This document shows, piece after piece, positions 18,624 through 42,536 of a DNA stretch of 64,000 bases. The stretch covers positions 6,667 to 70,666 of the forward strand of contig JAJZCR010000003.1 in assembly GCA_021851715.1 (NCBI GenBank), written 5' to 3'. Source of the DNA: Planctomycetota bacterium. GTDB lineage: Bacteria; Planctomycetota; Phycisphaerae; WQYP01. The notes under the pieces were generated by a model. That model was not told the DNA's origin. It did not search any database and worked only from the letters and a program-made list of their open reading frames with translations. Positions within the stretch are counted from its first letter, which is position 1, and each line of letters begins with the position of its first letter. The position numbers and the translations under genes were made by a program.

Positions 18624-22343
<3,720 letters not shown>

Positions 22344-23489: not shown

Positions 23490-26400
23490 ATGGCTTTCCT
23501 GGATCATCTACGCACAGCATGGTACATACACGCGAGGAACCTTACCGAGCGGCGCGCCCGCCAGGGCCGGAGGCACGTGTCGAGGCGTCAGCGCCGGCTG
23601 CTTTTTGAAGCGCTGGAGCCGCGTGTTCTGCTGTCCGCCAGCGGCGGCTTTACCAACGCCGGACTGGAAGGCCAGTATTTCAACAACACCACCCTCTCCG
23701 GCGCAGCGAGCTTCGTGCGGTCCGACGTGCGCATTGACTTTAACTGGGGTTCCGGCAGCACTACCCAAGCCCCCGGCGGGTCCACCGATCCCGGCTATAG
23801 CGCCGTCGGTGCCAACAACTGGTCTGCGGAATGGACCGGCTCGGTGATCCCCGCCTTCAGCGAAACCTACACCTTCACGGCCACCGCCGACGACGGCGTG
23901 CGGTTGTATATCAAACCCACCGGCACCAGCACCTGGACCACGCTGATCAATAACTGGACCAACAGCAACGTCACCGCGTACAGCGCCAACTATACCCTGA
24001 CTGCCGGAACCAGTTACGACATCGAGCTCCAGCATTATCAAGCCACGGACCCAAGTGAACTGATCCTCCAATGGTCCAGCCCCTCCACGCCGCAAGCCGT
24101 CATCGGACCGCTGACAGAGACGGGCCTGAACAACCCCGACTGGACGGCGGCCTACACCAATCTTGTCAACGGTGCCCGTAATTCATGGAGCGGTGTCAAT
24201 GGCAATCCCGCTCCGGCCATGGATGCCAATGGTTGGCCGGAAGGTGACGGTGAGTATGTATTTCAGGAGAGTCTTAATCAAGGCCTTGGCATCGACCCTT
24301 TAATGCTTGGAACCATCAACTTCAGCTTCAATGGCTCAGCGGACGTGTCCATCATGGGAAACGTAAACAGATCCTCGCTGACCTACAGTTACAACGCCAC
24401 CACCAATACCACCACCGGGAGCTTTACCACGGTGGACAATAATATTAACGCCAGCTTTTTCATCTTCACCAACTCCAGCCGCACCGGCGTGGCTGGTGGT
24501 CCCGGCGGCATCACGAACCTGAAGTTGATGCGTCCCATCTCGCCCGGGGCCACTACCAGTTACGCCACCGGTACCACATTTACAACCCCAATGGAATCGG
24601 CGTTGAGCAATTTCACGGCCATCCGCTTCCAACTCGTAGCCAATCAACAAGTCAACTGGTCCGATCGCACCAGTCCTAACTATTTTAACCAGAGTTTCGG
24701 GGCCGTCACGAATCCACAGCTCGGCGTAGGCGGCCCGTCAAACGACGGGCCAAGTTGGGAAAATGAAATCATGCTCTGCAATGAAACCGGCCGCGATATG
24801 ATGATCAGCCTGCCTCCCCTGGCCAATGATCAGTACATCACCAACCTGGCCAACCTGCTCAGATACGGCTCCGATGCCAACGGCAATCCCTATACCGCAC
24901 CCACCGCCAACCCGGTTCATCCCGGCTTGAATTCCAATTTGCACGTGTATCTTGAGCTGGGCAACGAATTATGGAATTTTGCCGGCATTTTCAGTACCGA
25001 TTTCAATAATATCAATGCTCTGACCGCCCAGCATGTGCAGGCCAATGACGCGGACTTTCAGATTGTCAATTACGATAATCTCAGCACGGCCACCAATGCC
25101 AGCGGCCAGTACGTCTCTATGAACACATGGCGTTATCGCATGATCGTGTTGCGCATGGTCCAGATCAGCAACATTTTCCGCAGCGTGTATGGCGATGCCG
25201 CCATGCCCAATTCCGGCAACTCCAACGCCACCATCCGTCCCCTTTACGAGTGGCAATACGGAAACTTGAATAACACCGCTGAACTGGGCTTAAACTGGGC
25301 CCAAAATTATTTTGACAACGCCGATGGGGTCCAGCATGTGACCACGCCGGAACCGATCAATTATTACCTTTGGGGCGGCGGCGGAGCGACTTACTACGGC
25401 GGCGACAACAGCGAAGGCCTGACCAATCTTCCGGCCGACAACAATTTCTACACCAGCACGCCGCTACCAGCCGGTTATAACCAGGATCCGACCGGTACGC
25501 CCTTCACCTTCACCGGTACCGCCGGTATCGCCGGTTATACCGCCGGCAATGCGCTGGGTATCCCACAACCGGACAACAGCCTTTATGGCGGTGACGGCAG
25601 CTACAGCAATCAGGTCGGCTACATCACCGATGCGGGCCAAATGTCCTTTACTTTTACCACGCCGACAAACCAAACCTCAGACCTTTACGCCTTTAGCTTC
25701 AAGGCCGTGAATCGCACCGAATCCACCGGCACGGTGGACCAGGAGAACCTGCGCGTGTACCTTGATTACGGTACCGCCAACCAAGTAGATATTACCGCAA
25801 AATCCTACAGCCAAGGCAACGGTTATACGCCGGCCAGTTATGCCCAGGCCGGTTCCGATTGGGAATCCCGCGTTGTGGCGTGGACGATGTCCGATTATTA
25901 CTACACGCAAAGCACTGCTCTGGCCGCCGGTAGCACGCACACGATTACCATCGTGGGTGAGGGCGATATCGCCAATCCCAGCCTTACAAACCAGACGGCG
26001 TTTTTCACCGATGTGCGCGTGACCAGTGTGGATGCAATTTTTGCCGGAGGCATTCCTGCCGGTGGTGATGCGACCGGTCAACCGGTTGGTTCCGATTTGG
26101 TCAACACCATGAATGTGGAGGCCAATTGGGCCAAGGCTTTCGGTTTGCAGGAGCTTTCCTACGAGGGTGGCTGGTCGTTGGGGGGTGATGACGGCGGATC
26201 GTGGATACAACTTGACGCCAAATACGGCGATCCGCGCACCGCAACCGCCCAGCAGACTTATATGAATGAATTTTATCAGGCCGGTAGTTCGGTCAGCATG
26301 TTGGGTACCTATGCCCAATGGCCTGATTGGAGTGATTATTACGCCCAGCAGGGGCTATTGAATATCACGCAGTATCCCATTGTGCAGGGCATTAATAATG

Positions 26401-26855
26401 CCGCCAACACCCTGCCGCCGACGGCCACCAACGGCATTTTGGCGCCCGCCGTTTTAACTCCCGCCACCGCCTGTATTGTCGAAGGCACCGGTACGCTTGG
26501 CCAAATTACTACCGCCGGCGGCTTTATCAACTGGATGGTCGTTGTACCGACCAGCGGCTACTATACCTTGAATCTGACCACCAGCGGCAGCGGCGGCACT
26601 GCGGTGATTCTGGCGGACAGTGCCGTGGTTAACAGTGGTGCCAGTGGCGGCGGGGGCGAATTTTGCCCCTGGCAGGTGGCCAATCTGTTAATGGAAAGCC
26701 ACCAGGGCGAACCGTTTTCACAGACGGCCATGCCGGGGTCCATACCCGCTCATGGCGGGGTGATCAACGCCGGATTTGCGGATGGACACGTGGAGTCCAT
26801 CAATTCCATCCAAGCCTTTGCCACCGCGTGTACCCCGGCCAACGCCCTTCGCTAG
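23490..26855 (+). CDS. Paralogue A: LEPR-XLL leader + PA14 + GH-A-like barrel with insert + in-frame H-X9-DG prepilin tail
   Basis: RRLLFEALEPRVLLS leader; PA14 (IDFNWG...W.G...DDGVRL); ELGNELWN and SYEGGW motifs; the last 67 codons match the C-terminus of 37060..37992. Confidence 0.85.
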   Translation: MAFLDHLRTAWYIHARNLTERRARQGRRHVSRRQRRLLFEALEPRVLLSASGGFTNAGLEGQYFNNTTLSGAASFVRSDVRIDFNWGSGSTTQAPGGSTDPGYSAVGANNWSAEWTGSVIPAFSETYTFTATADDGVRLYIKPTGTSTWTTLINNWTNSNVTAYSANYTLTAGTSYDIELQHYQATDPSELILQWSSPSTPQAVIGPLTETGLNNPDWTAAYTNLVNGARNSWSGVNGNPAPAMDANGWPEGDGEYVFQESLNQGLGIDPLMLGTINFSFNGSADVSIMGNVNRSSLTYSYNATTNTTTGSFTTVDNNINASFFIFTNSSRTGVAGGPGGITNLKLMRPISPGATTSYATGTTFTTPMESALSNFTAIRFQLVANQQVNWSDRTSPNYFNQSFGAVTNPQLGVGGPSNDGPSWENEIMLCNETGRDMMISLPPLANDQYITNLANLLRYGSDANGNPYTAPTANPVHPGLNSNLHVYLELGNELWNFAGIFSTDFNNINALTAQHVQANDADFQIVNYDNLSTATNASGQYVSMNTWRYRMIVLRMVQISNIFRSVYGDAAMPNSGNSNATIRPLYEWQYGNLNNTAELGLNWAQNYFDNADGVQHVTTPEPINYYLWGGGGATYYGGDNSEGLTNLPADNNFYTSTPLPAGYNQDPTGTPFTFTGTAGIAGYTAGNALGIPQPDNSLYGGDGSYSNQVGYITDAGQMSFTFTTPTNQTSDLYAFSFKAVNRTESTGTVDQENLRVYLDYGTANQVDITAKSYSQGNGYTPASYAQAGSDWESRVVAWTMSDYYYTQSTALAAGSTHTITIVGEGDIANPSLTNQTAFFTDVRVTSVDAIFAGGIPAGGDATGQPVGSDLVNTMNVEANWAKAFGLQELSYEGGWSLGGDDGGSWIQLDAKYGDPRTATAQQTYMNEFYQAGSSVSMLGTYAQWPDWSDYYAQQGLLNITQYPIVQGINNAANTLPPTATNGILAPAVLTPATACIVEGTGTLGQITTAGGFINWMVVVPTSGYYTLNLTTSGSGGTAVILADSAVVNSGASGGGGEFCPWQVANLLMESHQGEPFSQTAMPGSIPAHGGVINAGFADGHVESINSIQAFATACTPANALR
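26653..26855 (+). repeat. Copy 1 of the prepilin 3'-end (H-X9-DG) repeat
   Basis: 203 nt, 11 mismatches to 37790..37992 by manual alignment (about 95%). Confidence 0.95.
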
Positions 26856-26940
26856 CGGCCCCGGGGCCGGCTGGGTCCCTTTGGCCGCGGCAAAGCTATG
26901 TTGACATGGCCTGCGGCGATAGGGGCATCGCCGGCTGCGG
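26856..26940 (+). repeat. Diverged spacer homologous to 37993..38104
   Basis: Shared blocks such as ggccggctgggtccct/ggccgaccgggcccct and gcggcgataggggcatcgccggctgcgg/gcggcgatgggggcatcgctggctacgg. Confidence 0.7.
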
Positions 26941-27085
26941 CTGGCATCCTCGCCGTCGCCGCCGGACACATCGCGGAAGATGAATCATGCTCAGGGACCA
27001 GACCGGGAAAGAGCAGTCGGTTTTTCTGCGGTACCGGTCGCAACCGAGCCCTATGCGAAAGCGGCCTCATATTAAAGGATAAAAC

Positions 27086-29233
27086 ATGCCCAAGTCGAAT
27101 CGGATGAACCGCCGGGAAATGTTGTCTCGCATGGCTCAACTGGGAGTCGCAGCAGGTGCCGGTGCTGTGCTGGCGAAGAACAGCCTTGCCGGCTTGCCCG
27201 GCAGGGTCATTGCCAATGCTTCCGGGCGCGGCCGTCTGGAAGCCACGGCTTCCACGGGCCGTGGGCTGAATCAGTTCGGCATGAATGTATGGAGTTGCAG
27301 CGACTGGGACGGCAGTTTTGCCTTTGTCGATGCCATGAAGCAAGCACGGCAATGGCAGACTCCCAACATGCGGGCCATGGCCTCGTACGACGGTCTGGGC
27401 TGGCCGACCCAGGACGCCGGAACTGTGGTTTATACCGGCAACGCGGAGCACATCAATGGTATATACAAGCTGCTTTTTCAAGGGCAGGGGGTCATTCGCC
27501 CCGTGTACGGTTCCCCGATGACCGTGGCCGGCCAGCGCTACGATGCCGCCACCAATACCACCACTGCCGATATAACCTTTAAGCTTTCTCCCACCGGGGC
27601 GAGCCAATCGGTTGGTTTGGCGATTCTCGATTCCAAACGCGCGCCGCACTCACCCCAAGGGTCCGGGTTTACCAACGTGCGCCTGTACCGGCCAGGTTAT
27701 CCCACCAACGGAAGCGTGGTATTCACCGATTATTACGTGAAGGCCATGCAGTTTGGCAGCGTCATCCGCACCATGGACTGGACGGCGACCAACGGCAATA
27801 CCGTGGTCCACTGGGCGGACCGGCAAACCCCGCTGACGTTCTACAAGCCGTGCCCGCCATACATTCAAGCGGGCGGCGGACGGTTGGGCGGCACCGCGCT
27901 GGGGGTAGCACTGGAGCACCAGATTCAGTTGGCCAACCAGACCCAACGCGATCTGTGGATCAATGTACCCGTGGCGGCCGATGATGATTTTGTAACGAAA
28001 ATGGCGCAGGCCCTTCGCTATGGCACCGATGGCACGAATCCTTACACTTCGCCGCAGGCCGATCCAAAATATCCTCCGCTGGATGCGGGCTTGAATGTCT
28101 ATGTGGAATTTGCCAATGAAACCTGGAATTATGCCGGTGGGTTCTGGTGCTTTTATGTGCTCATGGATATGGTGAAAAAACTGCCGGCTTCGCATCCGAT
28201 TAAGGCCATTGACCCGCAAAATAACATTTATTACACAGCGTATCGCTATACCGCATACCGGATATCACAAATCAGCGATTTATTCCGATCGGTCTTCGGC
28301 GATGCGGACATGATGCAGCGGGTGCGGCCGCAGTTGATGTGGCAGAAAGGCACCGGTGGCACTTTTGGCGAAGGGTTCACCCAAATGTGCTGGCTGGATG
28401 CCTATGGCGGCAAACAGCACCCACCCCGAACGGTGCGGAGCTATATCCATGGTGCGGGCGGTTCCGCCTACTATGGCGTCAACAAGTTGTCCGCCAATCC
28501 GGATCAATACTTTGCGGCCGGCAATTACCCGGATACAAAAACCGTTCTCGCCTTTCGTAATGACGCCATGGCTGCTAAAAATTGGGGAGTGCAGCGCGTA
28601 GCCTACGAGGGCGGCGATGGCGTGGACGGCCTGCCGACCGCCCAAATCTTGGCCATCAATGCCGATCCGCGCATGAAAACCATGACGGAATTCATGCAAA
28701 ACTACTATGCCCAACAGGGCGGAGACCTGCTGATGTACTACACCGTCGTCGGGCCGGCGGACTGGGAATTCACACCCGACATCATGAATCTCAATACGCC
28801 CAAGTTTAACGCTTTGAAGGCTCTGAAACATGGGCAGCGGGACGCGGTAACCCTTGGGCAGGCCCTACCCGGTACGCTGTGGTGTGGCGAGGTTCCAGGC
28901 GTCGGTACCGCCGGCCCCTACAGCACCAAATACAATGGCCATCGCGTTCTGGGCGGCTTTCGCAACCCCGGAACCTGGCTGGCCTTTCCGGGGCACACCG
29001 CCGCGCCTTTCACCGCTGATGTCACTGTTCAAGGCCGGCCCGGCGTGCCCAGTGTGCTGGCTATCTGGATCAACGGCATCAGATTCGGTACGGTTGATAT
29101 GACCCAACGCAATAAGGTCTGCTGGAGCAGCGTGCTTGGCAGGGTACGCATTGCGGCCGGACTGGTGATGGTGCGTGTGGAACTGGTAAGCGGCAGTCTG
29201 GACTTGTACTCGCTCAGGGTGCGCCGGGCCTGA
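27086..29233 (+). CDS. Paralogue B: Tat-exported GH-A-like protein, no PA14, no barrel insert
   Basis: NRREML twin-arginine leader; IRTMDW, EFANETWN and AYEGGDG motifs; C-terminal beta-sandwich. Confidence 0.85.
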   Translation: MPKSNRMNRREMLSRMAQLGVAAGAGAVLAKNSLAGLPGRVIANASGRGRLEATASTGRGLNQFGMNVWSCSDWDGSFAFVDAMKQARQWQTPNMRAMASYDGLGWPTQDAGTVVYTGNAEHINGIYKLLFQGQGVIRPVYGSPMTVAGQRYDAATNTTTADITFKLSPTGASQSVGLAILDSKRAPHSPQGSGFTNVRLYRPGYPTNGSVVFTDYYVKAMQFGSVIRTMDWTATNGNTVVHWADRQTPLTFYKPCPPYIQAGGGRLGGTALGVALEHQIQLANQTQRDLWINVPVAADDDFVTKMAQALRYGTDGTNPYTSPQADPKYPPLDAGLNVYVEFANETWNYAGGFWCFYVLMDMVKKLPASHPIKAIDPQNNIYYTAYRYTAYRISQISDLFRSVFGDADMMQRVRPQLMWQKGTGGTFGEGFTQMCWLDAYGGKQHPPRTVRSYIHGAGGSAYYGVNKLSANPDQYFAAGNYPDTKTVLAFRNDAMAAKNWGVQRVAYEGGDGVDGLPTAQILAINADPRMKTMTEFMQNYYAQQGGDLLMYYTVVGPADWEFTPDIMNLNTPKFNALKALKHGQRDAVTLGQALPGTLWCGEVPGVGTAGPYSTKYNGHRVLGGFRNPGTWLAFPGHTAAPFTADVTVQGRPGVPSVLAIWINGIRFGTVDMTQRNKVCWSSVLGRVRIAAGLVMVRVELVSGSLDLYSLRVRRA

Positions 29234-29395
29234 GATCGCAAGCCCGCAATTGTGGCTGGAACAGAGCACTAGTCGCTGCGACTGGCCCAACATAACGGTG
29301 CATGATCCGGCATGGCCCGCTGTTTCAGCGATGCAATCGGCGATAACGGCCTGGATTTTTTTTGTACAGACGGACAAAGGCGCAGATAAAGCCGG

Positions 29396-29742
29396 AGGCG
29401 GTGGCCCGGCGGTCATCTTAAACCAGATTCCAGGTGATGAAATGTTGCTTTCGGACTGCAGTTTGTATTCCAAATGTGGCGGGTTTTCAATATGACTATT
29501 CCCTCACCGAGGTCAATGCGAGTTATACCGTGGCCGGTTGGGGCGACTTTTGCCCCTGGCCGGTGGCCACCCTGTTAATGGAAAGCCGCCAGGGCGAACC
29601 GTTCCCGCAGACGGCCATGCCGGGGTCCATACCCGCTCATGGCGGGGTGATCAACTCCGGATTTGCGGATGGACACGTGGAGTCCATCAATTCCATCCAA
29701 GCCTTTGCCACCGCATGTACCCCGGCCAACGCCCTCCGTTAA
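29396..29742 (+). pseudogene. Copy 2 of the prepilin 3' end: 5'-truncated, frameshifted fragment
   Basis: 347 nt, about 97% identical to 37647..37992, with an extra A (TATTCCAAATG vs TATTCCAATG) near 29473. No prepilin N-terminus upstream. Confidence 0.9.
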
Positions 29743-30053
29743 GGCCAAGTCCTTAAGGCACGCTTCCCGCGCGTCGTGGATAAGACGCGCCGAATTTGGT
29801 CCGGTCTCAAGGTTGGCCTCGGTAACTGTTCTTGTGATGTTTTCATGTACAATCCAGGTCCGTGTCCGGGACTCTGCAGTATGAATTTACGTGCTGTGGA
29901 TCCGGCGCTTATTTCCACGGCCGCGCCGCCGCTCGCCCATCGCCGCAATAAACTCTGCTGCGGAACGTTGTGAATCTCATCGTCCGCCTCGCCGTGAACG
30001 GCTGTTGAACCTTGAGTGATTGTTTCAACAATTACCATTGAAGGGATTTTGCC

Positions 30054-33000
30054 ATGATTTTTCGCCAGTCATATTCAACCATACGACAGATACTCCTGCC
30101 GCTGATTGTGCTGATCGCCACCGGCCCGTTGTGCTGGTCCGCGACCCGGGCCGGTGTGGCCGGCGGATTGATGAACGCCGGCATTGTCGGCAGTTATTTT
30201 TCCAATACGCATTTTGCCGGCACGCCCACCTTCACCCGGCGCGATGACCGCATCGATTTTAACTGGGGCCGATACCGCCCGGTCGGCGGATCCAATACGC
30301 CCCAATACCACAACTTTCCACGCCGCAATTTCTCCGTGCGCTGGAGTGGCCGGGTGATGCCAGGCTATGCCGGCAAGTATATATTTACAGTTGCTTCCGA
30401 CGATGGCGCGGTGCTCACCATTCAAGGGCCGGCGTCGGCACATCCGCATACCATCATGGACAGCCGGCAACCTGGAAAGGCCCAGAGCCGGCCCGTGCAG
30501 TTGGCTGCAGGCAAGGCATATCGTTTGATTCTAAGTTACCGGCATACGTCGGGCATCGCCTATTGCCGGCTGCTGTGGAACAAAGTTGGTTCCCCGGTGC
30601 GGGTCATGGGCCCGTTGCGGGCTCAAGGCATTAACGCTACCTCCTGGGCGAAATATGTATGGGCGAATGCGGTGCGCGAAGCCTGCAACTGGTACAGGGG
30701 CAAGTCCAACGCTCACGGGGAGCTTGTCACGAACGGCACGTTGGTGGCGTATGCGGGCCGCGGCACCTACACCATGCTGTTCCACGGCCGGGCCAACGTG
30801 CAACTGCAACTGGTCCCCGGTGATTTTACCGTTGGGTCGAAGAAGTATGCGCCGACACTTCCCGCCGGGGCCGGTTACGATGCCGCCACCAACACGACAG
30901 CGGCCCAGTTGCATATCCATGGCAACCGCGGGATGTTCTTTCTAGCTTTCAAGGATACGCGGAAAAATGCGTCCGCGGCCGCGGGCACGGGTATCACCCA
31001 CCTGCAGCTTTATATGCCCATGTTTCCCGGAGCCAAAAAGTCCGAGCCGGTCGGCACGGTTGTTTACCCACCGATCCGCCGGGCGTTTTCGCACTTTACC
31101 GTTATTCGCTGGCTCGAACAGGCCAATCTGGTGGAAACCGGCCGCTGGCGGGACCGCACCGTTCCGGGCGATCTGTTTTTCACCGCCCACGCTTATGCCA
31201 ATAACAACGGCGGTGAATGCTGGGAAGACCTGGTCATGCTGGCCAACGAAACCGGAAAAGACCTGTACATTACCATGCCCGTAGCCGCCAACCATGCTTA
31301 TTTCAAGAAGCTGGCCCTGCTGCTTAAATACGGCTCTAACGGCAAGGAGCCATACACGTCCATGCGGCCCGATCCGGTTTTCCCGCCGCTGAACCCCAAT
31401 TTAAAGGTCTATTTTGAAGTCGGCAATGAAATCTGGAACTGGGCCTTTGGTTCCAGCTTCCAGGCTGGGCAGATATCTCAACGTGAAATAAAGGCAGGCT
31501 CTGCGGCTGCCAAGATATTCAACTACAATGGTCACGGCAATTACCGCACCTGGCAGGTCTGGCGAACCGTGGTCGCCAGCAATACGTTTCGTTTGGTTTT
31601 CGGCAACAAGGCCATGGGCACCCGCATTCGTCCTTTGCTGGAAGATCAATACAACAACTACAACCTCACGGCCTGGTACTCTTTGAACTTTCTGGACGGC
31701 TACTATGACAACGGCACCGGCCACAACGTGGCCCACCCGCATCCGGTGAACTATTACATCTGGGGTGGCGGCGGTGCTACCTATTACGGTGTCGGCAATC
31801 CGCTGGGACTCCAGCACCGGATACGGTTTGCCGATGCCGGCTTCGAGCAGCCGGTGCTGCCGGATTATTCCGTCAAAAAAGACCCCGCCGGGACCCCATG
31901 GCATTTTCAGGGTGACGCGGGCATTTATCGCTGGGCTTCCCACGCCGTGGCCGGCTTCGCGGGCGGAAAGCTCCACAATTGCAACACCAAACAGGCCGTC
32001 GGTATGCAGTTCAGCGTGGGACCGCGGCCGATATTGGTTCACGCGATGGGAGGTTATCTCAACGGATTCATGCCTTCCGCGGCGGTGGTGCTTCTGAACG
32101 CGTCGAATCACAAGGTTCTGGCACGCGTGGTGTTGCCGCAGCAGCGGCCGGCCGATGCATTTTCCGGCGTCTTTTTGATCCGGCTTCAAGCGCCGCTTCA
32201 ACTTGAGCCCGGCCAAAAGTATGATCTTCTGGAAACGCCCCTGCAATACTGGTCCTGGCATCCCTTTACCCTCTATGGTGCCGGCACCAACATCGTGGCC
32301 GGACCGGGAGTTTCCGTGCTGGGGCCGGTTTCCGCCGCAGTGACATCGCCCGATCCGGGCCGATGGACTCTGCACTTCCATTCCGCCGTTGGACACGCCT
32401 GCGGACCCGTGGATTTCGACTATAGCAGTTCACCTTCACCATCTCATGCGGTCGCTTTTCCGAAACCTCTTGCCGGCTGCCAGGCGGCGTTTATCCGCGG
32501 CCGCGGCTCGATGGCACAAACGGTTAACTTCTCCAAGCCCGGTGATTATGCGCTGCTGTTTAATGCCGCTGGTTCCGGCAAGGGTTGGCCCAGTTACACT
32601 CCATTTCAAGTCCTGTGCGACAACCACAACGCCAGTCCGGCCCAGCAGAACAGCGATTTGATTGCACCCACGGCGGCCATAGGCGGGTGGGGCCGGCAGA
32701 TTAAAAACTTGCGGGAACACTACGGCAGTGCCGTATTTCACGTGGCCACGGCCGGACCGCATGTCATCCGTATTCAGGGCATGGGCAAAGGCGGAAAAGC
32801 GCCCCGGCCGTTTATTGTCTTTGATCACATCCGAATCTGCAGCGTGGCCAGCATCATCAACAGTGGGTTTTCTTCCGGCCAGGCGGCCGGGCAGGTAAGC
32901 CAGAACAACTATGCCAGGCAACTCAACGGCCAGGCCCAGTACCCCACGGCATTCGGCCTGCACGTGGTCGCCTACGAAGCCGGCTGGTCTTTGGGTGGAG

Positions 33001-33548: not shown

Positions 33549-33593
33549 GCGGCTTTGTCGCCGGCGTATGCCGGCATAATAAGGTGCTTTATC

Positions 33594-35021
33594 ATGATGC
33601 GATTGATCACTTTAACCACGGTCTGGTTGTCGATGATGGCCGGGGCAATCCTGGGCCTTGGCACCGCATCGGCGGCAGCGGCCGGTGCATTTTATCTTCG
33701 CCCCCATGATCGGGTGGTTTTCTACGGCGACAGCATCACCGAGCAGCGCTACTATCCCGTGGCGGTGCAAACCTTTGTACGCACCCGCTTTCCGGATCTG
33801 AAGGTTCGCTTTGTCGATTCCGGCGTGGGGGGGGACACCGTCCGCGGAGGATGGGCCGGCCCCATCGACCAGAGACTCAAACGCGATGTCCTGCCCTTTC
33901 ACCCCACCGTGGTAACCATCATGCTTGGCATGAACGACGGCGGCTATCGTCCCTTCAATGCCGTTGTCCTGCAGCGATACCTGCAGGGATACGTGCATAT
34001 CATTCAATGGCTGCGGGCGCATCTTCCGGGCGTGCGGTTGGTGTTGATCGAGCCATCGCCGTTTGACGACTATTCCGGGCCGGTCAGACGACGCGGGCTT
34101 GGCACCTACAACCAGATGCTGATTCGCATGGGCCGGGCGGTTGCCCAACTGGCCGCCAGGTACCATGCCCTTTGCGTTAATTTCAACGCACCGCTGGTGA
34201 AAGTTATCCAACAAGTCCGCCGGATCAACCCGGCATTGGCTCCGCGCATCATTCCGAAACGCGTGCATCCAGGTGCCACGGCCCAGATGGTCATGGCCCA
34301 GTTGCTGCTGCAGGCCTGGAATGCGCCGGCCCTGGTGTCTTCGGTGGAAATCCGCGCAGGCTCCGCCCCGACGGTCACCCGGGCCGTGAACACGCGCGTC
34401 GGCGATTTGACGTTTGCACGCGGTGCACTTTCCTGGACGCAAACCGACCGGGATTTGCCTTATCCCATGATGACCCTGCATGCCCGGCATGCACCCCAGT
34501 TTCCACCCGTTCTCTGGTGGAATCGAAAAACTCACAAGCCTGGAAACTGGCCCGGCCCCACGCAGAATCTCAGCTACACCAATCCGCTTGCGGCACTGGT
34601 GTTGCACCTCACACACGCGTATCAAGTGCTCGATCAGCAGCGGTTGCGGGTTTCGGGCCTGCCCGCCGGCAACTATGAATTGCAGATTAATGCTCAGTCT
34701 ATCGGCCGCTTCACCGCCGCAAAGCTTGCCGCCGGCATAAATCTCGCCCGCTACAACACCCCGATGATGGCCCGGGCCCGCCATGTCATGACGTTGGTAT
34801 GGCAGCAGACGCAGTATCGCTTTAGGGCATGGAGGCGTCATCAATTGCCCGCCCTGGGCTTTGGATACAAGGCCAAACGCGCCGCGCCCGCCGCGCTGGC
34901 CAGGGCGCTGGCGATCGCCAGGGTCATGTATCGCCAATGCCGGCGGATGGATGCCGCCCAATACGCCGCCGCTCAGCCACGCCCGGACCGTTATCGCCTG
35001 ACGCGGATAGCCACGCCATGA
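33594..35021 (+). CDS. Secreted SGNH/GDSL hydrolase (putative carbohydrate esterase)
   Basis: Signal peptide; blocks GDSIT, GVGGD, LGMNDG; block V reads PKRVHP. Start ATG 33594 or 33597. Confidence 0.88.
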   Translation: MMRLITLTTVWLSMMAGAILGLGTASAAAAGAFYLRPHDRVVFYGDSITEQRYYPVAVQTFVRTRFPDLKVRFVDSGVGGDTVRGGWAGPIDQRLKRDVLPFHPTVVTIMLGMNDGGYRPFNAVVLQRYLQGYVHIIQWLRAHLPGVRLVLIEPSPFDDYSGPVRRRGLGTYNQMLIRMGRAVAQLAARYHALCVNFNAPLVKVIQQVRRINPALAPRIIPKRVHPGATAQMVMAQLLLQAWNAPALVSSVEIRAGSAPTVTRAVNTRVGDLTFARGALSWTQTDRDLPYPMMTLHARHAPQFPPVLWWNRKTHKPGNWPGPTQNLSYTNPLAALVLHLTHAYQVLDQQRLRVSGLPAGNYELQINAQSIGRFTAAKLAAGINLARYNTPMMARARHVMTLVWQQTQYRFRAWRRHQLPALGFGYKAKRAAPAALARALAIARVMYRQCRRMDAAQYAAAQPRPDRYRLTRIATP

Positions 35022-35222
35022 ATTGAGCCATCCACCGGCACCCGCCTCGCACCGATCTCCAGACTTCCGCAGCCGTGGTACGCCTTTCCTCGACCGCCAG
35101 TTTCTGCCAGCCAATGTTGGGCATTGCCCACGTCGGGCTGATCGCCTAAAATACCGCCTGTCAAAAGACAGTCGCTGAATAATTTGGCGTGTACGGTGGC
35201 AGGCCTTCTAAGGAGAATAACT

Positions 35223-36215
35223 GTGGCGAAACAACAGCACTTCCATGTTCTGCGTATATCTCCGCGAGTACGGCCGCACCGATTGGCATGTGCCTTTTTC
35301 GCCTGTAGTGTTTTGGCTTTTGCCGGAGCACTTCAGGCCGCCGGTTCCCCCGCCTTGGATCAACTCCACACCTGGCTGGCTCAGCGGCATTACCACCGGG
35401 CGCTGCAAACGGCCACCACGTGGTTGAACCTCAATCACCGGGCCATGCGGCACAAGCATCTGACCCGCTACGAATTGCAATGCGTTCGGGCCAGGGCGAT
35501 GCTGCGGATTTCCGCATTTGCCGGGGCTATGGATGCTTTTCGTGCCGCGGCTGCTGTAGCGCCAACCATCCAGGACGCCCGCACCAGCCGGGCGATGGCG
35601 GACTTGATTGACCACAGTTTCGGCGGCGTGTACAAGCATCGCGTTCATCAAGGTGGCCGCCTGATCATCAAGAGCTTCAACATTGGGCCGAAAGCCTCGC
35701 GCCGGCAAGCCATGCAGGCGCTGGCCCGGGACCAGTGGAAAACACTTCATCCCAGAATAATCCGGGCGTTGCGTGCCGCCTCGCTGAACCCATCGCTTCG
35801 TCTCCTGCCGGCGCTTCGCCTGGCGGTGGATGTGCAATTCGCCGCGGATCTTGAGCCCAATGGATCCTCGGTTGCCAAAGGTGCTCAGCCGCCAGCCCTG
35901 GCCGCCGTGAACTCGGTGAGCGCTCACCTTCAGACGCGCATTGCCGCCGGACTCCAGACGCTGCAGTCCACCGTGTATAACATCCAGCGTCTGGCGGATG
36001 GCAAAGTGCGTAGCGGCCGCATGATGATCCGGCGGGGATTAAACGGGACCCAGCGTGATACGCTGCAGAATATTGTGGACATCTGCTCCCGGATACAGAG
36101 ATCCATCGCCAGGTTCACGCGGCTATTTCCGGATTTCCCCAAAGATGTGACAGCACTCAAAGAGTTGAATGACCGCGCCCGGCAGGTGCAGGTAGAGGCT
36201 GCGCATGTGCATTGA
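35223..36215 (+). CDS. Hypothetical secreted helical protein
   Basis: AAGGAG Shine-Dalgarno before GTG 35223; signal-like LACAFFACSVLAFAGALQA; TPR-like helical N-terminal region. Confidence 0.65.
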   Translation: MAKQQHFHVLRISPRVRPHRLACAFFACSVLAFAGALQAAGSPALDQLHTWLAQRHYHRALQTATTWLNLNHRAMRHKHLTRYELQCVRARAMLRISAFAGAMDAFRAAAAVAPTIQDARTSRAMADLIDHSFGGVYKHRVHQGGRLIIKSFNIGPKASRRQAMQALARDQWKTLHPRIIRALRAASLNPSLRLLPALRLAVDVQFAADLEPNGSSVAKGAQPPALAAVNSVSAHLQTRIAAGLQTLQSTVYNIQRLADGKVRSGRMMIRRGLNGTQRDTLQNIVDICSRIQRSIARFTRLFPDFPKDVTALKELNDRARQVQVEAAHVH

Positions 36216-36260: not shown

Positions 36261-36621
36261 CCTAGTGTAATGGTATCCGCGACATCAGGCCTGCGGCCCC
36301 ATGAAAACCCGTAGCCGGTTGTTCCTCCGCCAACCTGTGCCGGTTGTCATTCCTCCATGTTTCAGCCCGGCCCGTTGTTGGGTCGCGAGCACCGCACCGC
36401 CCTCTGCCACTCCACCCTCACGACGAGCAACAAAGGCTCTTCGATGCACTGCATTTGCAACGCCATCTACCCCCTTCATCCCTGCAACCACCGTCTTGAA
36501 CACCCCCTTGGGGTCATACAACTTCCCGCCCCAGAAAATATCATCAAAACCCCTGTCAATACGCATCCGCATCTGTGTCATGCTTGCTTTTTTAAAGAAT
36601 AACTTGTAAACTCACGCTAGG
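36261..36621 (+). mobile_element. Internally deleted IS-like remnant (about 361 bp), family uncertain
   Basis: Imperfect terminal inverted repeats CCTAGTGTAA (36261) and reverse complement CCTAGCGTGA (36612-36621). Frameshifted fragment GREHRTALCHSTLT/DEQQRLFDALHLQRHLPP resembles the C-terminal tail of IS1634/IS4-type transposases. No target duplication seen. Confidence 0.45.
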
Positions 36622-36624
36622 CTG

Positions 36625-36741
36625 TACGTACACGCGAGGAACCTCACCAGTCGGTGCCGCCGCCAGAACCGGGGTTACGTGTCGAGGCGTCAGCGTCGGC
36701 TGCTTTTTGCAGCGCTGTGTCCTGTATTCCGCCTTCTCTGA
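36625..36741 (+). pseudogene. Decayed copy of the paralogue A N-terminal LEPR-XLL leader
   Basis: YVHARNLTSRCRRQNRGYVSRRQRRLLFAAL vs YIHARNLTERRARQGRRHVSRRQRRLLFEAL at 23523: 78/93 nt identical with no gaps. Start removed and stop at 36739. Confidence 0.85.
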
Positions 36742-36862
36742 TCCCCGTGGCGCCCTTTGCGATCTTCTCGTTTCCGCAGTACATCATTTCCCCACGTACG
36801 CCTAATTTGGCTTGGTTTCATTGGCTAAATAGCGGCAAGATTCACAAAAAAATATTTTAAAC

Positions 36863-36893
36863 TTTGCGCCAAACGAATCAGGATTTGCGCAAA
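36863..36893. promoter_or_regulatory. Second tandem operator TTTGCGCCAA-N11-TTTGCGCAAA
   Basis: Boxes at 36863-36872 and 36884-36893 with a 21-bp period. The upstream A/T tract is also conserved with 23282-23301. Confidence 0.65.
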
Positions 36894-37059
36894 ATGGGCT
36901 TTTTTAGCTTCCGCGATTGGTGTAACCTCAACTTCAGATGGCGCAGGTCGCGAGTTAAATCAGTTGTGCGGAAGGCGTTCTTCCGGCGTTCGCCGGAACC
37001 ATTCGCAATCTGGGCTCGCCGCTGTCGGAGATGGCTCCCATAGGGAGCAAGGAGTTTTT

Positions 37060-37992
37060 ATGTTGTCCAAGTCACGTTCCACAATTTTGCTGGCTGCGGC
37101 TGGCAAACTAAGGCGTGCGTCCGGTTTTACCCTGGTGGAGCTTTTGGTGGTAATTTCGATTATCGCCATTCTGATCGCCTTGCTGTTGCCGGCACTGGCG
37201 GCAGCGCGGCAGGCCGCCGATGTTACATTATGCGCCAGCAACGAGCGGCAAATTGTGCTGGGCATTCAATATTACGCGCAAGATTACCAAGACATGGTGC
37301 CGTTTAATGGTGCCGATGGCGGTGCGTGGTTTGACAGTCTGGGCGGTGCGCCGTTGATGCAGAATTATGCACCGATTCGCTACCACATGACTTCGTATTT
37401 ACCCGGTTTGGATACCGGTTATTATGGCTACAACCATCCCAGTTCCGCAGTGTGGCTGTGCCCACTTTTTCAGAATGCGTTCCAGGGCCAGAACATGACC
37501 AATTTTTATCATCCGGTGTCACAATACGTTGGCCAGGGGGCCAAGTACCTTCCATGCAATTATTCGCTCAACGCGAACTTGTATGCATACATGAATGGGA
37601 GCAATCAATATGTCAGCCCGCTGCCGTTGCCGTACGGATCTCCCAAAGGCGGTGGCCCGGCGGTCATCCTAAACCAGATTCCAGGTGATGAAATGTTGCT
37701 TTCGGACTGCAGTTTGTATTCCAATGTGGCGGGTTTTCAATACGACTATTCCCTCACCGAGGTCAATGCGAGTTATACCGTGGCCGGTTGGGGCGCCTTT
37801 TGCCCCTGGCAGGTGGCCACCCTGTTAATGGAAAGCCGCCAGGGCGAACCGTTTTCACAGACGGCCATGCCGGGGTCCATACCCGCTCATGGCGGGGTGA
37901 TCAACTCCGGATTTGCGGATGGACACGTGGAGTCCATCAATTCCATCCAAGCCTTTGCCACCGCATGTACCCCGGCCAACGCGCTACGATAA
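37060..37992 (+). CDS. Prepilin-type N-terminal cleavage/methylation protein (DUF1559-like) with C-terminal H-X9-DG motif
   Basis: [32 protein letters not shown]...CASNERQI; [21 protein letters not shown] Shine-Dalgarno before ATG 37060. Confidence 0.93.
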
Positions 37993-38225
37993 CCGGCCCG
38001 CGTGGCCGACCGGGCCCCTCCAACTGCGGTGATGGGGATCCAGCATGGCGGTGCGGGAATTGCGCTTGTGTTTGCCGCGGCGATGGGGGCATCGCTGGCT
38101 ACGGGGTGGACTTTGCGGCGGGATAGGTTGCACACAAACGCCTGGTCAGCGAACAAAACCAGATGCGTCATCAAATATTATGTTATTAGGGGCGGCCACT
38201 TTATAACTTTATTACTGGAGCTTTT

Positions 38226-41200
38226 ATGTTTCATGAGTCATACCGGAATCGCGGGCGCGATGTGCCATTATTCGTGATTGCCGTGGCTTTGATATTCCTG
38301 GTGGTGGCGGCAGGGTCCGTGGGGACGGCTGCGGCGGGGCCGTTAGTGGCCAGTGGAGGGGGCTTTCTGGGCGGGGGAATAAAAGGGCAATATTATGTGG
38401 ACCATGCCGGACGGCATTTCGCCGGAAAGCCAGTTTTTTCCCGGCGCGATGTGCGCATTGATTTTAACTGGGGGCCGCATTCCAGCTTTTACACCGTGGC
38501 GGGCAGCAATACGTACCGCTTGCCGGATCGGCATTTTTCAGTGAGCTGGCGGGGCCGTCTGATGACACGCTACAGCCAAACCTATCAGTTTTCTGTGACC
38601 AGCGCGGGTGGTGGAGCACGGGTGGAAATAAAGCCCGCAGGAACTAAAACCTGGACAATGCTGGCCGACGCCTGGACGGCCCACCATCTTCAGCGGAACC
38701 ACAAGAGCCTGCCTCTGATTGCCGGAAAGGTCTACGACTTTCGGGCGCAGTATTATCACCGCAGCGGCGCGGCCCGGATGCAGGTTCGGTGGGTGTGTCC
38801 GCTGACCCGGCGCAGGGCCATTGGTCCGGTGGAGCGCGTTGGTGTGAACGGTTCCACCCCTATTGATTGGGATCCCGGCCTGATGTTTGCAGATGTGATT
38901 AAAACCTGCCGCATTGGGCAACTGTCGCCTCATTTAAGTGCCCATGGCTGGCCCATCGGCAATGCGAGTTTTGTACTGTTTACTCTGCCCGCCAACGCCG
39001 CCGGCACGTACACGCTTACCTTCAAAGGGCGGGCGAAAGCGACTATCGCCTGGATAAAAAACCGTGTTATCTCCAGCCATTATGATGCCGTCGATAACAC
39101 CACCACCGAAATTATACGATGTGGTGCGGGCCACAAGGCCGAGTTGGTCCTTCAACATACGCGGCGGCTGCCCACCGACCATCACGCCACCGGCGTAACC
39201 GATATCCGGCTGATGCGTCCCATTGCGATTGGCGCGCATACCAGCTATCCGCCTACCACCACGTTTACCACGCCGTATAAGACCTTGCTGCGTAAATTCA
39301 CAGCCATCCGATTCATGGATTTTCTGGGCATGAACAGTCCCCAGGGATTCAACGGCGGCAACGCTCTGGTCCATTGGAGTCGGCGCCTCAGGCCCAGTTT
39401 TTCATCCCAAACCGGGGTGCATTATGCGTATCAAGGCGCTGGAGGCGCTTTGGAATACGCAGTGGAACTCTGCAATGAAACCGGCAAGGACATGTGGATG
39501 AATATTCCCATGCCGGCGGACAACGGCTACCTGCACAAACTGGCCCTGGCCCTGAAATATGGCTTTGATGCGCACGGTAATCCGTACACCAGCCGGCAGG
39601 TGGATCCCGCCTGGCCGCCGCTGAATTCCAATTTACGCGTTTACCTGGAATATTCCAATGAGGTGTGGAACGGCGGGTTTTATCAGCATAATCTGTGCTC
39701 CCAACTGGCTCTGCGGGCGGTGAAAGACCACTCCCGCAATGGCCTTATTCTCAGCTACGATCACACCACCAATCCGACGCTGCTGGGCCAGCGCTGGTGG
39801 ATACTGCGCACCAAAGAGATCAGCGATGCTTTTCGCCAGGTCTGGGGCAATGCCGCGATGATGCGGGTGGTGCGGCCGGTGTTTGAATTTCAGTACGGCA
39901 ATTACAACAACACCGCGGACCTGACGCTGCAATTCCTGGCCAATTATTTTAACAATGAGGATGGGCACCATGTGGCGCATCCGCATCCGTTGAATTACTA
40001 TCTGTACGCAGCCGGCGGCGGCTGGTACAACACCGTCAATAACAACAGCGGTCTGGGTGCGGTAAAAATCAGCAACCGCCATTTTCAGATGCCCGTCGTC
40101 GCGGCCAATACGGTCCAGACCGCCCCCGTTCATGCCAATTGGAGATTCTCCGGTGCCGCTGGCCTGGTGGGAGCCAATCCTTCCGCCACATCTGCCGCCG
40201 TTGCCACCCATCTGGGTTCGCTGCTCAAGTCGTCGCAGAAGGGTAATCAAGGCGTGGGGTATCGCTTTACCGTTGGCAATCACAACCTGGACCTGCAATC
40301 GATCGGCTATTACGTCGCCAAAGGCGATTGGGCGACCCACGTTATCTTTCTGCTCAATTCCCACCGGAAGCTTATGCTGCGCAGCGTGGGTATCGCCACG
40401 GCCCACCAGCCGGTGGGCCACTATGCCTATGCGAACGTCGGGCCGGTGGAGCTTAAGGCCCATCATCATTACTACCTGATTTCGCTGATTTGTTCCTGGA
40501 CCAGGCGCGATTCCTATTATGGCCCCAATACCACACTGCAAACCACTCCGGACATTCGCGTTGACTGTGCTGAATCCGCAGTGATGCCCAAAGCATATTG
40601 GCTCTCCAGGCAATGGGTGTTCCACCGCGGCCCGTCCGGCCATGTGGCTGGGCCGATCAATTTTACCTACGTATTGGCCCCGTCGGCCAAGGCCATGCCT
40701 CCGCGACCGCAGGCCGTATACGGTGCCCAGGCGGCTTATCTGCAATCCGGGGGCAGCCTGTCGCAAAAAATAGACATGCCTGCCGGTGTATGTGATGTGC
40801 AGGTTCTCGCATCCTCATCCACCGCAGCCAAGGATGATTTCCAGGTGCGTATCGGTCGCCACATTCTGCATGGTGGCTGGCCGCCGAACATCACGCCGGA
40901 GGCCGGAGCCTATCAATGGTACACGGTTGGCCCGGCGGACATTCGCGTGGCCGGCGTGCATAAGTTTGAGTTGATCAAAGGCTCGGGCCAGGGGACTATT
41001 TTCATCAATGCCGTGCGTGTGGTCACGACCGCTCCGATCATCGCTTCCGGGTTAAAAAACACCACCCCCGTCTGGAGGACGGAAGCGGACTGGGCGCGGG
41101 CTTATGGCCTGCGCACGGCGGGTTATGAAGGCGGTTTTGAAATCGGCGGTGACAGTCCCAATGGAGTAACAATGGCCGCCAACGTCGCTCCGCGTGTCAA

Positions 41201-42536
41201 GCGGTTTACCGCCGAGACGCTCCAGGATTACCTTTCCGCGGGCGGCAATGTGCCGATTGTGTTCTGTGTCAGCGGCGGCGCTTACTCCGTGGTGATGAGC
41301 TCTCCCCTGGGTATACCCAATATTTTCTGTCAGCATACGCCCAAGCTGGCCGGGTACAGGCAGGTGATGGCCCATCTGCCTCCGCCGGTGAGCAATGGAA
41401 TACTGATACCCACGGTGCTTACCCCGGCGAATGCAACCCTGGCTTATGACAATCCGCCGCATGAAACATGGACCTATACCGATCCCAGCGGTGTACTGAA
41501 ACGCATGGGCGGCTGGATGAGTTGGAACATTCTGGTGGCTGCGGGCGGCATGTATCACGTGGCCGCAACCGCCGCCACCACGGGCCGGTATGAACTGCTG
41601 GTGGATTCGGTGCCCATTGCGCAAGGTGGCGCGGGCGCATCGGCCGCTGGCTCGATTCGCCTGACGCCCGGTTTGCATGCGGTGAAAGTCCGCAACCTCG
41701 GCAACGTAGCCGTGACGGTGCGGCAGATCAGCGTCACCCAGGTGGGTGCGCCGGCGGCACCCCGCTTGCGCAGCGTAATTGTCAGCCCACACACGGCCCA
41801 GTTGCGTTGGTCGGCTGTTCCGGGAGCGTCGGGCTATATCATTGCCTGGGGAGCAGCGCCGGGAGCCATGACCCATTTTGTCGATGCCGGAGTAGCCGTT
41901 TCCAAAACGATCTCTTCTGGAATAAATCTCGCCAGGGTTCATTATTTTGGTGTTTTGGCTTATGGTCCGGCCCGGCAGCGCGGCATGACGTCCAATATCA
42001 TTCGGGCGGTGTGGTTTGCATCATCGCCGTTGCAGGATCTGAAATTTGGTTCGCTCCGGGTGGGTACCAGGTTCCGCCAGGTCCAGTTGCATGGTTTTAA
42101 TATCTTTGGATGGGGCGGCGGAGATTTTCTGCAGGTGCAGGGCAAAACTCAACCGCGGAAACAGCAGGTATGGCCGGGCGGCTGGCCGGAAACCATGCTC
42201 TTCTCGATGACCTGGGGGCATAATTTCGGCATTGTCCAAGCGGACGGCAAGCCATTGACGATGCATTCCATGGACGTTGCAGTCAACTATGGCCATGAAC
42301 AGGATAGCTGCATCGTGCGTGGTTACGACCCGGATGGCATTTGCGCCTTTCAGAAAGTGGTGGCTTTTGCCATACCGCAGAAGAGGCAGGCCGCCTGTGT
42401 GCATCTGTCCCTCCACTGGATCGATGTTTCGCGTGTGGATGTCATCTGGACCACGGGCCGGCACGGAACGGGTCGCGGTCGTTTCGGGGCCATCGGCAGG
42501 ATCGTGGTGGGCGGCGGCAGCGATGTGTTTCACTGA
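38226..42536 (+). CDS. Paralogue D: Sec signal + PA14 + GH-A-like barrel with large insert + beta-sandwich + FN3-like + extra C-terminal domain
   Basis: Signal peptide; PA14 (RIDFNWG, but DD replaced: TSAGGG); IRFMDF, EYSNEVWN and GYEGGF motifs; FN3-like LRWSAVPGASGYII...YFGVLAY. Confidence 0.85.
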   Translation: MFHESYRNRGRDVPLFVIAVALIFLVVAAGSVGTAAAGPLVASGGGFLGGGIKGQYYVDHAGRHFAGKPVFSRRDVRIDFNWGPHSSFYTVAGSNTYRLPDRHFSVSWRGRLMTRYSQTYQFSVTSAGGGARVEIKPAGTKTWTMLADAWTAHHLQRNHKSLPLIAGKVYDFRAQYYHRSGAARMQVRWVCPLTRRRAIGPVERVGVNGSTPIDWDPGLMFADVIKTCRIGQLSPHLSAHGWPIGNASFVLFTLPANAAGTYTLTFKGRAKATIAWIKNRVISSHYDAVDNTTTEIIRCGAGHKAELVLQHTRRLPTDHHATGVTDIRLMRPIAIGAHTSYPPTTTFTTPYKTLLRKFTAIRFMDFLGMNSPQGFNGGNALVHWSRRLRPSFSSQTGVHYAYQGAGGALEYAVELCNETGKDMWMNIPMPADNGYLHKLALALKYGFDAHGNPYTSRQVDPAWPPLNSNLRVYLEYSNEVWNGGFYQHNLCSQLALRAVKDHSRNGLILSYDHTTNPTLLGQRWWILRTKEISDAFRQVWGNAAMMRVVRPVFEFQYGNYNNTADLTLQFLANYFNNEDGHHVAHPHPLNYYLYAAGGGWYNTVNNNSGLGAVKISNRHFQMPVVAANTVQTAPVHANWRFSGAAGLVGANPSATSAAVATHLGSLLKSSQKGNQGVGYRFTVGNHNLDLQSIGYYVAKGDWATHVIFLLNSHRKLMLRSVGIATAHQPVGHYAYANVGPVELKAHHHYYLISLICSWTRRDSYYGPNTTLQTTPDIRVDCAESAVMPKAYWLSRQWVFHRGPSGHVAGPINFTYVLAPSAKAMPPRPQAVYGAQAAYLQSGGSLSQKIDMPAGVCDVQVLASSSTAAKDDFQVRIGRHILHGGWPPNITPEAGAYQWYTVGPADIRVAGVHKFELIKGSGQGTIFINAVRVVTTAPIIASGLKNTTPVWRTEADWARAYGLRTAGYEGGFEIGGDSPNGVTMAANVAPRVKRFTAETLQDYLSAGGNVPIVFCVSGGAYSVVMSSPLGIPNIFCQHTPKLAGYRQVMAHLPPPVSNGILIPTVLTPANATLAYDNPPHETWTYTDPSGVLKRMGGWMSWNILVAAGGMYHVAATAATTGRYELLVDSVPIAQGGAGASAAGSIRLTPGLHAVKVRNLGNVAVTVRQISVTQVGAPAAPRLRSVIVSPHTAQLRWSAVPGASGYIIAWGAAPGAMTHFVDAGVAVSKTISSGINLARVHYFGVLAYGPARQRGMTSNIIRAVWFASSPLQDLKFGSLRVGTRFRQVQLHGFNIFGWGGGDFLQVQGKTQPRKQQVWPGGWPETMLFSMTWGHNFGIVQADGKPLTMHSMDVAVNYGHEQDSCIVRGYDPDGICAFQKVVAFAIPQKRQAACVHLSLHWIDVSRVDVIWTTGRHGTGRGRFGAIGRIVVGGGSDVFH

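Follow-up and report, generated by a model that had tools for sequence, protein, structure and literature searches.

Between positions 23,490 and 42,536 of a 64,000-nucleotide (nt) stretch of DNA from a Planctomycetota bacterium (contig JAJZCR010000003.1; hereafter, the window) lie four paralogous genes, which we call A, B, C and D. Their products are most likely secreted (through Tat-like, Sec or LEPR-XLL leaders) and belong to one large family that crosses phyla. They would probably form a family of the type found in clan GH-A of the glycoside hydrolases (GHs), acting on a beta-linked polysaccharide by retaining hydrolysis; the activity, the roles of the two glutamates concerned and the substrate are what we infer. 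The four proteins are set apart by a loop on the catalytic face of the predicted barrel, between strand 6 and helix 6, which is empty in B, holds one module in A and holds two modules, one nested within the other, in C and D.

Gene A, 23490-26855, + strand: open reading frame (ORF) of 1121 amino acids (aa); LEPR-XLL-type leader, PA14 domain (aa 56-200), beta-sandwich, predicted GH-A-like barrel; motif pair N492-E493 (nt 24963-24968) and Y891-E892 (nt 26160-26165)
Gene B, 27086-29233, + strand: ORF of 715 aa, the insert-free form; Tat-like leader, strand 1 (aa 64-68), beta-sandwich (aa ~105-205), predicted barrel to aa ~590; motif pair N344-E345 (nt 28115-28120) and Y507-E508 (nt 28604-28609)
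Gene C, 30054-33548, + strand: ORF of 1164 aa; PA14 domain (aa 42-167), beta-sandwich, predicted barrel, C-terminal sandwich; motif pair N458-E459 (nt 31425-31430) and Y974-E975 (nt 32973-32978)
Gene D, 38226-42536, + strand: ORF of 1436 aa, the most diverged of the four; PA14 domain, beta-sandwich, predicted barrel, long C-terminal extension without a Pfam match; motif pair N478-E479 (nt 39657-39662) and Y967-E968 (nt 41124-41129)

Shared motifs and the predicted fold of the core

An earlier note on this DNA had grouped the four genes by a small set of common motifs. A regular-expression scan reproduced its positions exactly, returning NExWN at nt 24963, 28115, 31425 and 39657 and YE(G/A)G at nt 26160, 28604, 32973 and 41124, and found IRxx(D/E), (R/K)YG and GGGxxYY in all four proteins. 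The distance from the start of the strand 6 motif to the tyrosine of YEG is 51 residues in B, 262 in A, 403 in C and 370 in D, values that agree with the spacings proposed earlier (about 40, 250, 390 and 365 residues in the same order, counted between motifs). In a MAFFT alignment of the four proteins, the other three are 29-33% identical to A and 80 columns are invariant, the N-E pair included. A profile of B-type homologues recognized D, A and C with E-values of 4.9e-96, 1.6e-78 and 5.3e-71, respectively. The N-terminal PA14 domain (PF07691) scored 53.1 bits in A, 39.7 in C and 40.2 in D against a Pfam cut-off of 24 (E-values 4e-14 to 5e-10), and a Pfam scan found none in B.

The AlphaFold2 model of B, computed with 45 homologues, has a mean predicted local distance difference test score (pLDDT) of 89 and a predicted template modelling (TM) score of 0.88. 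It displays the (beta/alpha)8 barrel that had been proposed for the family, with eight alternating strands and helices, the N-E pair after strand 4 and the second glutamate after strand 7. According to DSSP, the N-terminal part comprises a strand at aa 64-68, a short helix and the beta-sandwich at about aa 105-205; the later barrel strands are 226-229, 289-294, 338-342, 413-418, 456-463, 503-506 and 546-551. Strand 4 (aa 338-342) is followed by N344-E345, with helix 4 within about nine residues of the pair, and strand 6 (456-463) is separated by about 20 residues from helix 6 (484-499), after which come strand 7 (503-506) and E508. Across 45 B-type sequences there is no variation at N344, E345 and E508, nor at R228 (strand 2), Y462 and Y463 (strand 6) and W560 (after strand 8), the placement of which parallels the constellation of GH5-like enzymes. 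The N-E and Y-E pairs are also invariant in 27 C-type sequences, and 355 of the 369 full-length relatives keep both catalytic motifs.

When the model of B was compared with the PDB by Foldseek, the best fold matches were mainly clan GH-A enzymes, in keeping with the GH-A-like core suggested earlier. They were led by 5la1 (GH5 with a carbohydrate-binding module (CBM) of family 6; E 2.8e-10) and 8j3x (GH128-CBM6; 2e-9), and further matches were found to GH30 (4qaw), GH79 (5bwi and 7pr9), GH44 (3fw6), GH51 (2y2w), GH2 and GH10. The Foldseek probability was 1.00 or close to it for the GH-A matches (0.98-1.00 for GH2), with 8-12% identity throughout. Given such identities and the lack of profile likeness to GH5 described below, the link to clan GH-A rests on the fold and on the positions of the motifs; it is mainly from the model that the core is predicted to be a clan GH-A-type barrel, and sequence gives no support.

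Two beta-sandwiches accompany the barrel of B. The C-terminal one resembles CBMs:

C-terminal CBM6/35/36-like beta-sandwich of B, 28862-29230, + strand: aa 593-715, recognized by Foldseek

Its target-normalized TM scores are 0.77 with 1uy2 (root mean square deviation (rmsd) 2.7), 0.74 with 1o8s, 0.70 with 7ay3 and 0.62 with 1w0n, and the rmsd of these matches is 2.7-3.2, except for 1w0n (5.9). In homologues, Pfam itself recognizes CBMs, namely CBM_35_2 at the C-terminus of one protein (P0034) and CBM_6 at residues 580-674 of another (P0119).

The other sandwich is common to A-D and seemingly lies between strand 1/helix 1 and strand 2 (in B aa 64-205, window positions 27275-27700). The segment that precedes it in B is strongly conserved (N62, G65, D73, D82 and R88). 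As the sandwich is preceded by this conserved segment and followed by seven strands only, aa 64-68 would be strand 1 and the sandwich an insertion in the barrel. Judged from the DSSP string and from conservation, it may thus represent a second, constant barrel insertion and not an N-terminal domain.

The strand 6 loop and the spread of the family

The extra sequence that the earlier note had noticed inside the barrel maps between strand 6 and helix 6 in A, C and D:

Single-module insert of A, 25419-26093, + strand: aa ~644-868, between strand 6 (GGGGATYY) and helix 6
Two-module insert of C, 31809-32909, + strand: aa ~586-952, between strand 6 and helix 6
Nested DUF4082-like block of C, 31935-32471, + strand: aa ~628-806, splitting the outer module
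Two-module insert of D, 40053-41078, + strand: aa ~610-951, delimited by alignment with C
Nested block of D, 40188-40718, + strand: aa ~655-831

An AlphaFold2 model of C aa 565-985 (pLDDT 84.6) presents the insert as all-beta, with 24 strands of at least three residues (model residues 43-366), closed by a short helix (367-372) and by helix 6 (386-402). Foldseek matched it to tandem or single sandwiches of the sugar-binding type (CBM51 pairs, CBM6, the CBM35 of Xyn30D, malectin-like domains and an accessory domain of PNGase) with E-values of 1e-4 to 4e-8, no family standing out. A Pfam scan of the isolated inserts returned nothing useful.

The nesting was examined by hhalign. The profile built from 69 A-type inserts and the one built from 39 C-type inserts aligned over their full length (probability 100%, E 1.4e-69), except for a block of about 180 residues in the C-type inserts (C aa ~628-806) that lacks a counterpart in the A-type profile. 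This pattern indicates that the insert of C and D is an A-type module in which a second module has been placed after the first strands, and it bears out the nesting that had been claimed for both proteins. The likeness of the nested block to DUF4082, noted by eye at the time, holds as remote homology. Indeed, in a profile-profile comparison the block aligned with four DUF4082-bearing proteins (hhalign probability 97.9%, E 3.2e-13, 151 columns), whereas four controls (the outer module, the A-type insert, a GH5 profile and the reversed target) gave E-values of 0.3-0.8. The four targets are small PEP-CTERM proteins of related genomes, all of which match PF13313, three of them above the cut-off. 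The Pfam DUF4082 model (PF13313) itself is silent: it had no match at E<=10 on the isolated inserts and none in the whole genome.

The family is large. Homologues detected by word sharing numbered 239 for B and 190 for C, and when 1.84 billion cluster representatives were searched exhaustively with a profile, 1,890 of them matched at E<=1e-30 and 5,505 matched at E<=1e-10. The hosts include Planctomycetota, Victivallales/Lentisphaerota, Abditibacteriota, Armatimonadota (Capsulimonadaceae), Myxococcota, Fibrobacterota, Acidobacteriota (Geothrix, Holophaga and Terracidiphilus) and Betaproteobacteria (Niveibacterium and Uliginosibacterium); type IX secretion system (T9SS) tails on some members point to Bacteroidota as well. 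Relatives carry fused accessory domains (fn3, CBM6, He_PIG, Laminin_G_3, PKD and Big_2, besides the T9SS tails), a set that is typical of secreted carbohydrate-active enzymes.

We surveyed the length of the insert in about 215 relatives, taking the distance from strand 6 to the putative nucleophile. Three classes emerged, each spanning several phyla: about 50 residues (108 proteins, none of them with PA14), 225-250 residues (72 proteins) and 350-425 residues (34 proteins). In a tree of the barrel core, the insert-free clade is separated from the PA14 clade with a support of 99, and within the latter the single and nested forms interleave, so that at least five changes of state are needed. C is 41% identical to proteins of Abditibacteriota and Lentisphaerota, and B 47% identical to proteins of Holophaga and Uliginosibacterium, while A-D are only 29-33% identical to one another. 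Since each gene is closer to genes of other phyla than to its neighbours, and since the lengths fall into three discrete classes, the insert is not hypervariable, as the earlier note had called it, and behaves as a three-state character of old subfamilies. On sequence comparison, A-D thus appear to belong to old subfamilies as opposed to being recent local duplicates, and this one genome carries all three states of the insert.

Proposed activity and competing explanations

In the mechanism that we propose, the invariant E345 (B numbering), after strand 4, would be the acid/base that protonates the leaving group, and E508 of the Y-E-G-G motif, after strand 7, would be the nucleophile that forms the glycosyl-enzyme intermediate. 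The polymer would be held by the PA14 domain (in A, C and D), by the C-terminal CBM-like domain and by whatever occupies loop 6, i.e. nothing in B, a jelly-roll module in A and a jelly roll with a DUF4082-like sandwich inside it in C and D. From their position at the cleft rim, the loop-6 modules would probably contribute subsites or a wall, so that the paralogues would differ in the chain context they prefer.

This last idea, that the inserted modules extend or wall the substrate cleft and set the chain-binding preference, is probable by analogy with MtGlu5, a GH5 endo-beta-1,4-glucanase from Meiothermus taiwanensis whose beta6-alpha6 loop/helix 6 carries a CBM29-like jelly roll (PDB 7VT8; PMC9063844). 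In MtGlu5, the insert works with the catalytic domain in substrate binding, extends the cleft and raises catalytic efficiency, and, as a result of the inserted module, the acid/base and nucleophile glutamates are about 240 residues apart (PMC9063844). MtGlu5 thus resembles A, C and D in having a GH-A barrel with a beta-jelly-roll at the same loop. It differs in being a recognisable GH5 enzyme, about 50% identical to TmCel5A, whereas the A-D family has no detectable GH5 likeness, and in having one module only, without a nested module, a PA14 domain or a beta-sandwich after strand 1.

Several other systems share part of the architecture. GH148, represented by the beta-glucanase EngU, belongs to clan GH-A and was recognized by weak local similarity alone; it has a CBM within the barrel, and its members carry different inserts at one site (PMC5725463). 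In GH148, however, the insert lies after strand 4 and is present in all members, and the motifs are INNEN and VTEYN (PMC5725463), whereas in the A-D family it lies after strand 6, half of the family lacks it and the motifs are (A/G/S)NExWN and (A/S/G)YE(G/A)G. Membership of GH148 was rejected on these three grounds (motifs, insert site and obligatory insert), the family being set apart from EngU by description. The best Foldseek matches of B, the GH5_34 enzyme CtXyl5A (5la1, 2y8k and 5g56) and the GH128-CBM6 protein CBM6E (8j3x; PMC10956234), have a CBM6-type sandwich immediately after the GH-A barrel, as in B, and in CBM6E the GH and CBM6 domains are reported to fold as one unit (PMC10956234). 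They differ from B by their 8-12% identity without profile similarity and by the lack of both the N-terminal-side sandwich and the strand 6 insert. The 'disruptive CBM' of CBM6E was considered as a further case of an inserted CBM and discarded, as it is really a C-terminal CBM6 that disrupts curdlan (PMC10956234). GH79 heparanase/beta-glucuronidase (5bwi and 7pr9) gave the top target TM scores for the barrel plus sandwich (0.46-0.48); here, identity is about 10%, the catalytic motifs are different and the sandwich is built differently, and a Pfam scan of A-D for GH79 found no match. As for DUF4082 (PF13313), of which the nested block of C and D is a remote relative, it has no established function.

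A number of results weigh against a glycosidase of clan GH-A. The shared core matches nothing in Pfam (2025) or NCBIfam (2026), and so offers no link to GHs by sequence; B has no match whatsoever in either library, and in A NCBIfam added only the LEPR-XLL leader and an H-X9-DG prepilin tail (TIGR04294). Searching all PDB sequences at E<=10 with phmmer and with the 45-sequence profile brought up no glycosidase, the sole profile match being a weak one (E 0.22) of CBM 2w3j to the C-terminus of B. GH5 membership was rejected: the Pfam Cellulase model (PF00150, GH5) gave no hmmscan match at E<=0.1, and hhalign assigned a probability of 0.3% to the match with a profile built from 12 GH5 domains of related genomes, with the same outcome for the B-type profile and for a combined core of 216 sequences. 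Good fold matches of B include barrels from outside clan GH-A (GH66, GH27, GH29 and GH156), and the query TM scores are low (0.16-0.31), the latter because B has several domains. In the literature we found neither a characterised member nor a new family of this architecture, and no characterised member turned up in the databases searched. Finally, the gene context points to no clear substrate, and most relatives are stand-alone genes.

We tentatively suggest that the barrel founds a new clan GH-A family in CAZy, with about 2,000 clusters at 50% identity in at least eight phyla, subfamilies defined by their nested-domain architecture and a glycan beyond those of existing families as substrate, for example an acetylated bacterial exopolysaccharide. 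It is rather unlikely, although the very size of the family speaks for it, that the core already belongs to a CAZy family lacking both a Pfam model and a solved structure, such as a recent family based on a single enzyme. CAZy families founded on single characterised members can indeed be without Pfam or PDB entries, GH148 being such a case (PMC5725463). Yet GH148, the only structure-less GH-A family that we compared, differs in its motifs and insert site, neither Pfam 2025 nor NCBIfam 2026 has a model, and no source names any of the roughly 380 relatives a glycoside hydrolase; they are labelled 'hypothetical', 'PA14 domain-containing' and 'fibronectin type III domain-containing'. A different question is what the enzymes would act on. 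Instead of scavenging foreign polysaccharides, they might trim or release the exopolysaccharide of the cell itself, as PslG or BcsZ do. Many of the host taxa produce exopolysaccharide or flocs heavily, a B-type homologue (62% identity) is found immediately upstream of an exopolysaccharide cluster, and two PEP-CTERM proteins are encoded between A and B in a congener. But such a cluster was seen in only one of nine contexts, and a degradative role would better fit a set of four to five divergent paralogues that carry PA14 and CBM modules and are accompanied by an SGNH esterase; we consider action on the cell's own exopolysaccharide unlikely.

That the barrel is not a hydrolase at all, the proteins being surface proteins of the lectin or adhesin type, or transglycosylases, on a GH-like scaffold, would fit their richness in binding-type modules (PA14, CBM-like and DUF4082-like). 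It is improbable in view of the N-E and Y-E pairs, the strand 2 arginine, the strand 6 tyrosine and the strand 8 tryptophan, which are invariant or nearly so across phyla, as expected of an active site. Moreover, the copy in this genome that lacks the nucleophile (VAYAGG) is clearly decayed, which suggests that the glutamate is otherwise under selection. Least probable, and largely refuted, is the view, implied by the earlier note, that the insert is a locally hypervariable cassette, with the locus shuffling modules to diversify specificity. The locus does rearrange, as judged from a 9.2-kb deletion relative to the congener, three prepilin tails and another gene order elsewhere, but these rearrangements hit gene ends and spacers, not the inserts, and the paralogues are nearer to other phyla than to each other, with three fixed insert lengths family-wide. 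A family of probable retaining hydrolases of clan GH-A type thus remains the reading that we favour.

A CBM in a GH-A barrel loop is already known from MtGlu5 (PMC9063844) and, at another loop, from GH148 (PMC5725463). What appears to be new is that the insertion has two levels, one nested in the other, that it is combined with another sandwich after strand 1, and that so large a family is devoid of annotation. If it does lie outside CAZy, the family would rank among the larger groups of probable polysaccharide-degrading enzymes that lack annotation in bacteria of soil, fresh water and wastewater. As its members are annotated just as 'PA14' or 'fibronectin', genome-based estimates of carbon turnover would miss them. 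The occurrence of no insert, one module or nested modules on one barrel would make a clean system for studying the effects of inserts on an active-site cleft, and DUF4082 would be offered its first functional context. B, being small, insert-free and modelled with high confidence, is a practical entry point for biochemistry.

Gene surroundings and rearrangement of the locus

The four genes are preceded by secA and followed by a xylose-isomerase-like TIM gene, a transaldolase gene and PGI. C is separated from D by an SGNH/GDSL esterase-like gene, a 343-aa ORF with no matches and a prepilin-like gene, and pieces of prepilin sequence recur elsewhere:

secA, 18624-22349, - strand: 1241 aa
Prepilin H-X9-DG tail fused to A, 26586-26855, + strand: TIGR04294 match, repeat family D1
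Truncated prepilin 3' end, 29396-29742: between B and C
SGNH/GDSL esterase-like gene, 33555-35021, + strand: 488 aa, directly 3' of C; Pfam Lipase_GDSL_2, E 1e-18
ORF of 343 aa, 35184-36215: Pfam scan of no use
DUF1559 / H-X9-DG prepilin-like gene, full length, 36964-37992, + strand: upstream of D

Pfam scans of the C-terminal 297 residues of D and of the C-terminal half of the SGNH protein likewise gave nothing useful. The pair formed by C and the SGNH gene, with a prepilin gene upstream, is conserved in metagenome-assembled genomes (MAGs) of Planctomycetota, in which the C orthologues are 71-74% identical. The SGNH partner is 77-79% identical in related Planctomycetota (L008 13549-14982; L013 4250-5680), and a GDSL gene is also found about 7 kb from the C orthologue of Abditibacteriota (L005). 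An esterified (acetylated) substrate is a reasonable guess from this neighbour.

Gene neighbourhoods of nine homologues revealed no pattern of the polysaccharide utilization locus kind, and seven of them were uninformative. In one (L004 12529-22217, from a JGI metagenome), the 62%-identical B-type homologue mentioned above is directly upstream of a complete-looking exopolysaccharide cluster that comprises a Wzx flippase, hexapeptide acyltransferases, GT2/GT4/WecG transferases, a sulfotransferase and exosortase EpsH/EpsI.

The 270-nt prepilin tail is present three times at the locus, and the copy at 29396-29742 is 97-99% identical to the end of the full prepilin gene upstream of D (37647-37992). 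From these copies, a prepilin gene followed by a secreted glycosidase-like gene looks like a repeated unit; the same pairing is also seen in related MAGs (L008/L009).

The origin of the tail fused to A is suggested by a contig of the same genus (L068; G004:C88, 2813-12015), which is 99% identical and contains an extra 9.2 kb at the A junction, at nt ~26644-26655. These 9.2 kb encode the rest of A (fn3 and DUF1349-like; open frame of 1803 aa), a subtilase of family S8, a regulator of the periplasmic-binding/AraC (XylR-like) type and two PEP-CTERM proteins, and they also include the 5' portion of a DUF1559 prepilin gene. The window, by comparison, has aa 1-1055 of A joined in frame to the last ~65 prepilin residues, with the C-terminal sandwich cut off. 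The additional DNA of the congener indicates that A is here a deletion chimera, with the barrel and its insert intact and the C-terminal domains lost; a real deletion and a population variant of the MAG are indistinguishable in these data. The XylR/AraC-type regulator of the congener is missing from the window, and the gene order differs in yet another congener.

A fifth, decayed copy of the B type, 67% identical to B, lies on another contig (G000 contig C102; L010:3018-3737). Only strands 5-8 are left, the nucleophile glutamate is replaced by alanine (VAYAGG) and the CBM has lost 36 residues. Genes for a PAS histidine kinase and for a response regulator of the LuxR type immediately precede this copy; the same two-component pair is found upstream of the C orthologue in L008.

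Two further repeats were noticed. A box with two TTTGCGC(A/C)AA palindromes occurs upstream of A (23294-23336) and upstream of the prepilin gene (36855-36897), the two copies being 77% identical. An 84%-identical copy of the 5' coding leader of A (23522-23615) is located at 36624-36717, 230 nt before the second box and in the opposite order. Box and leader copy may represent a regulator site and a gene remnant, respectively. Lastly, the SecA protein encoded in the window is much longer than a typical SecA, which has about 900 aa.

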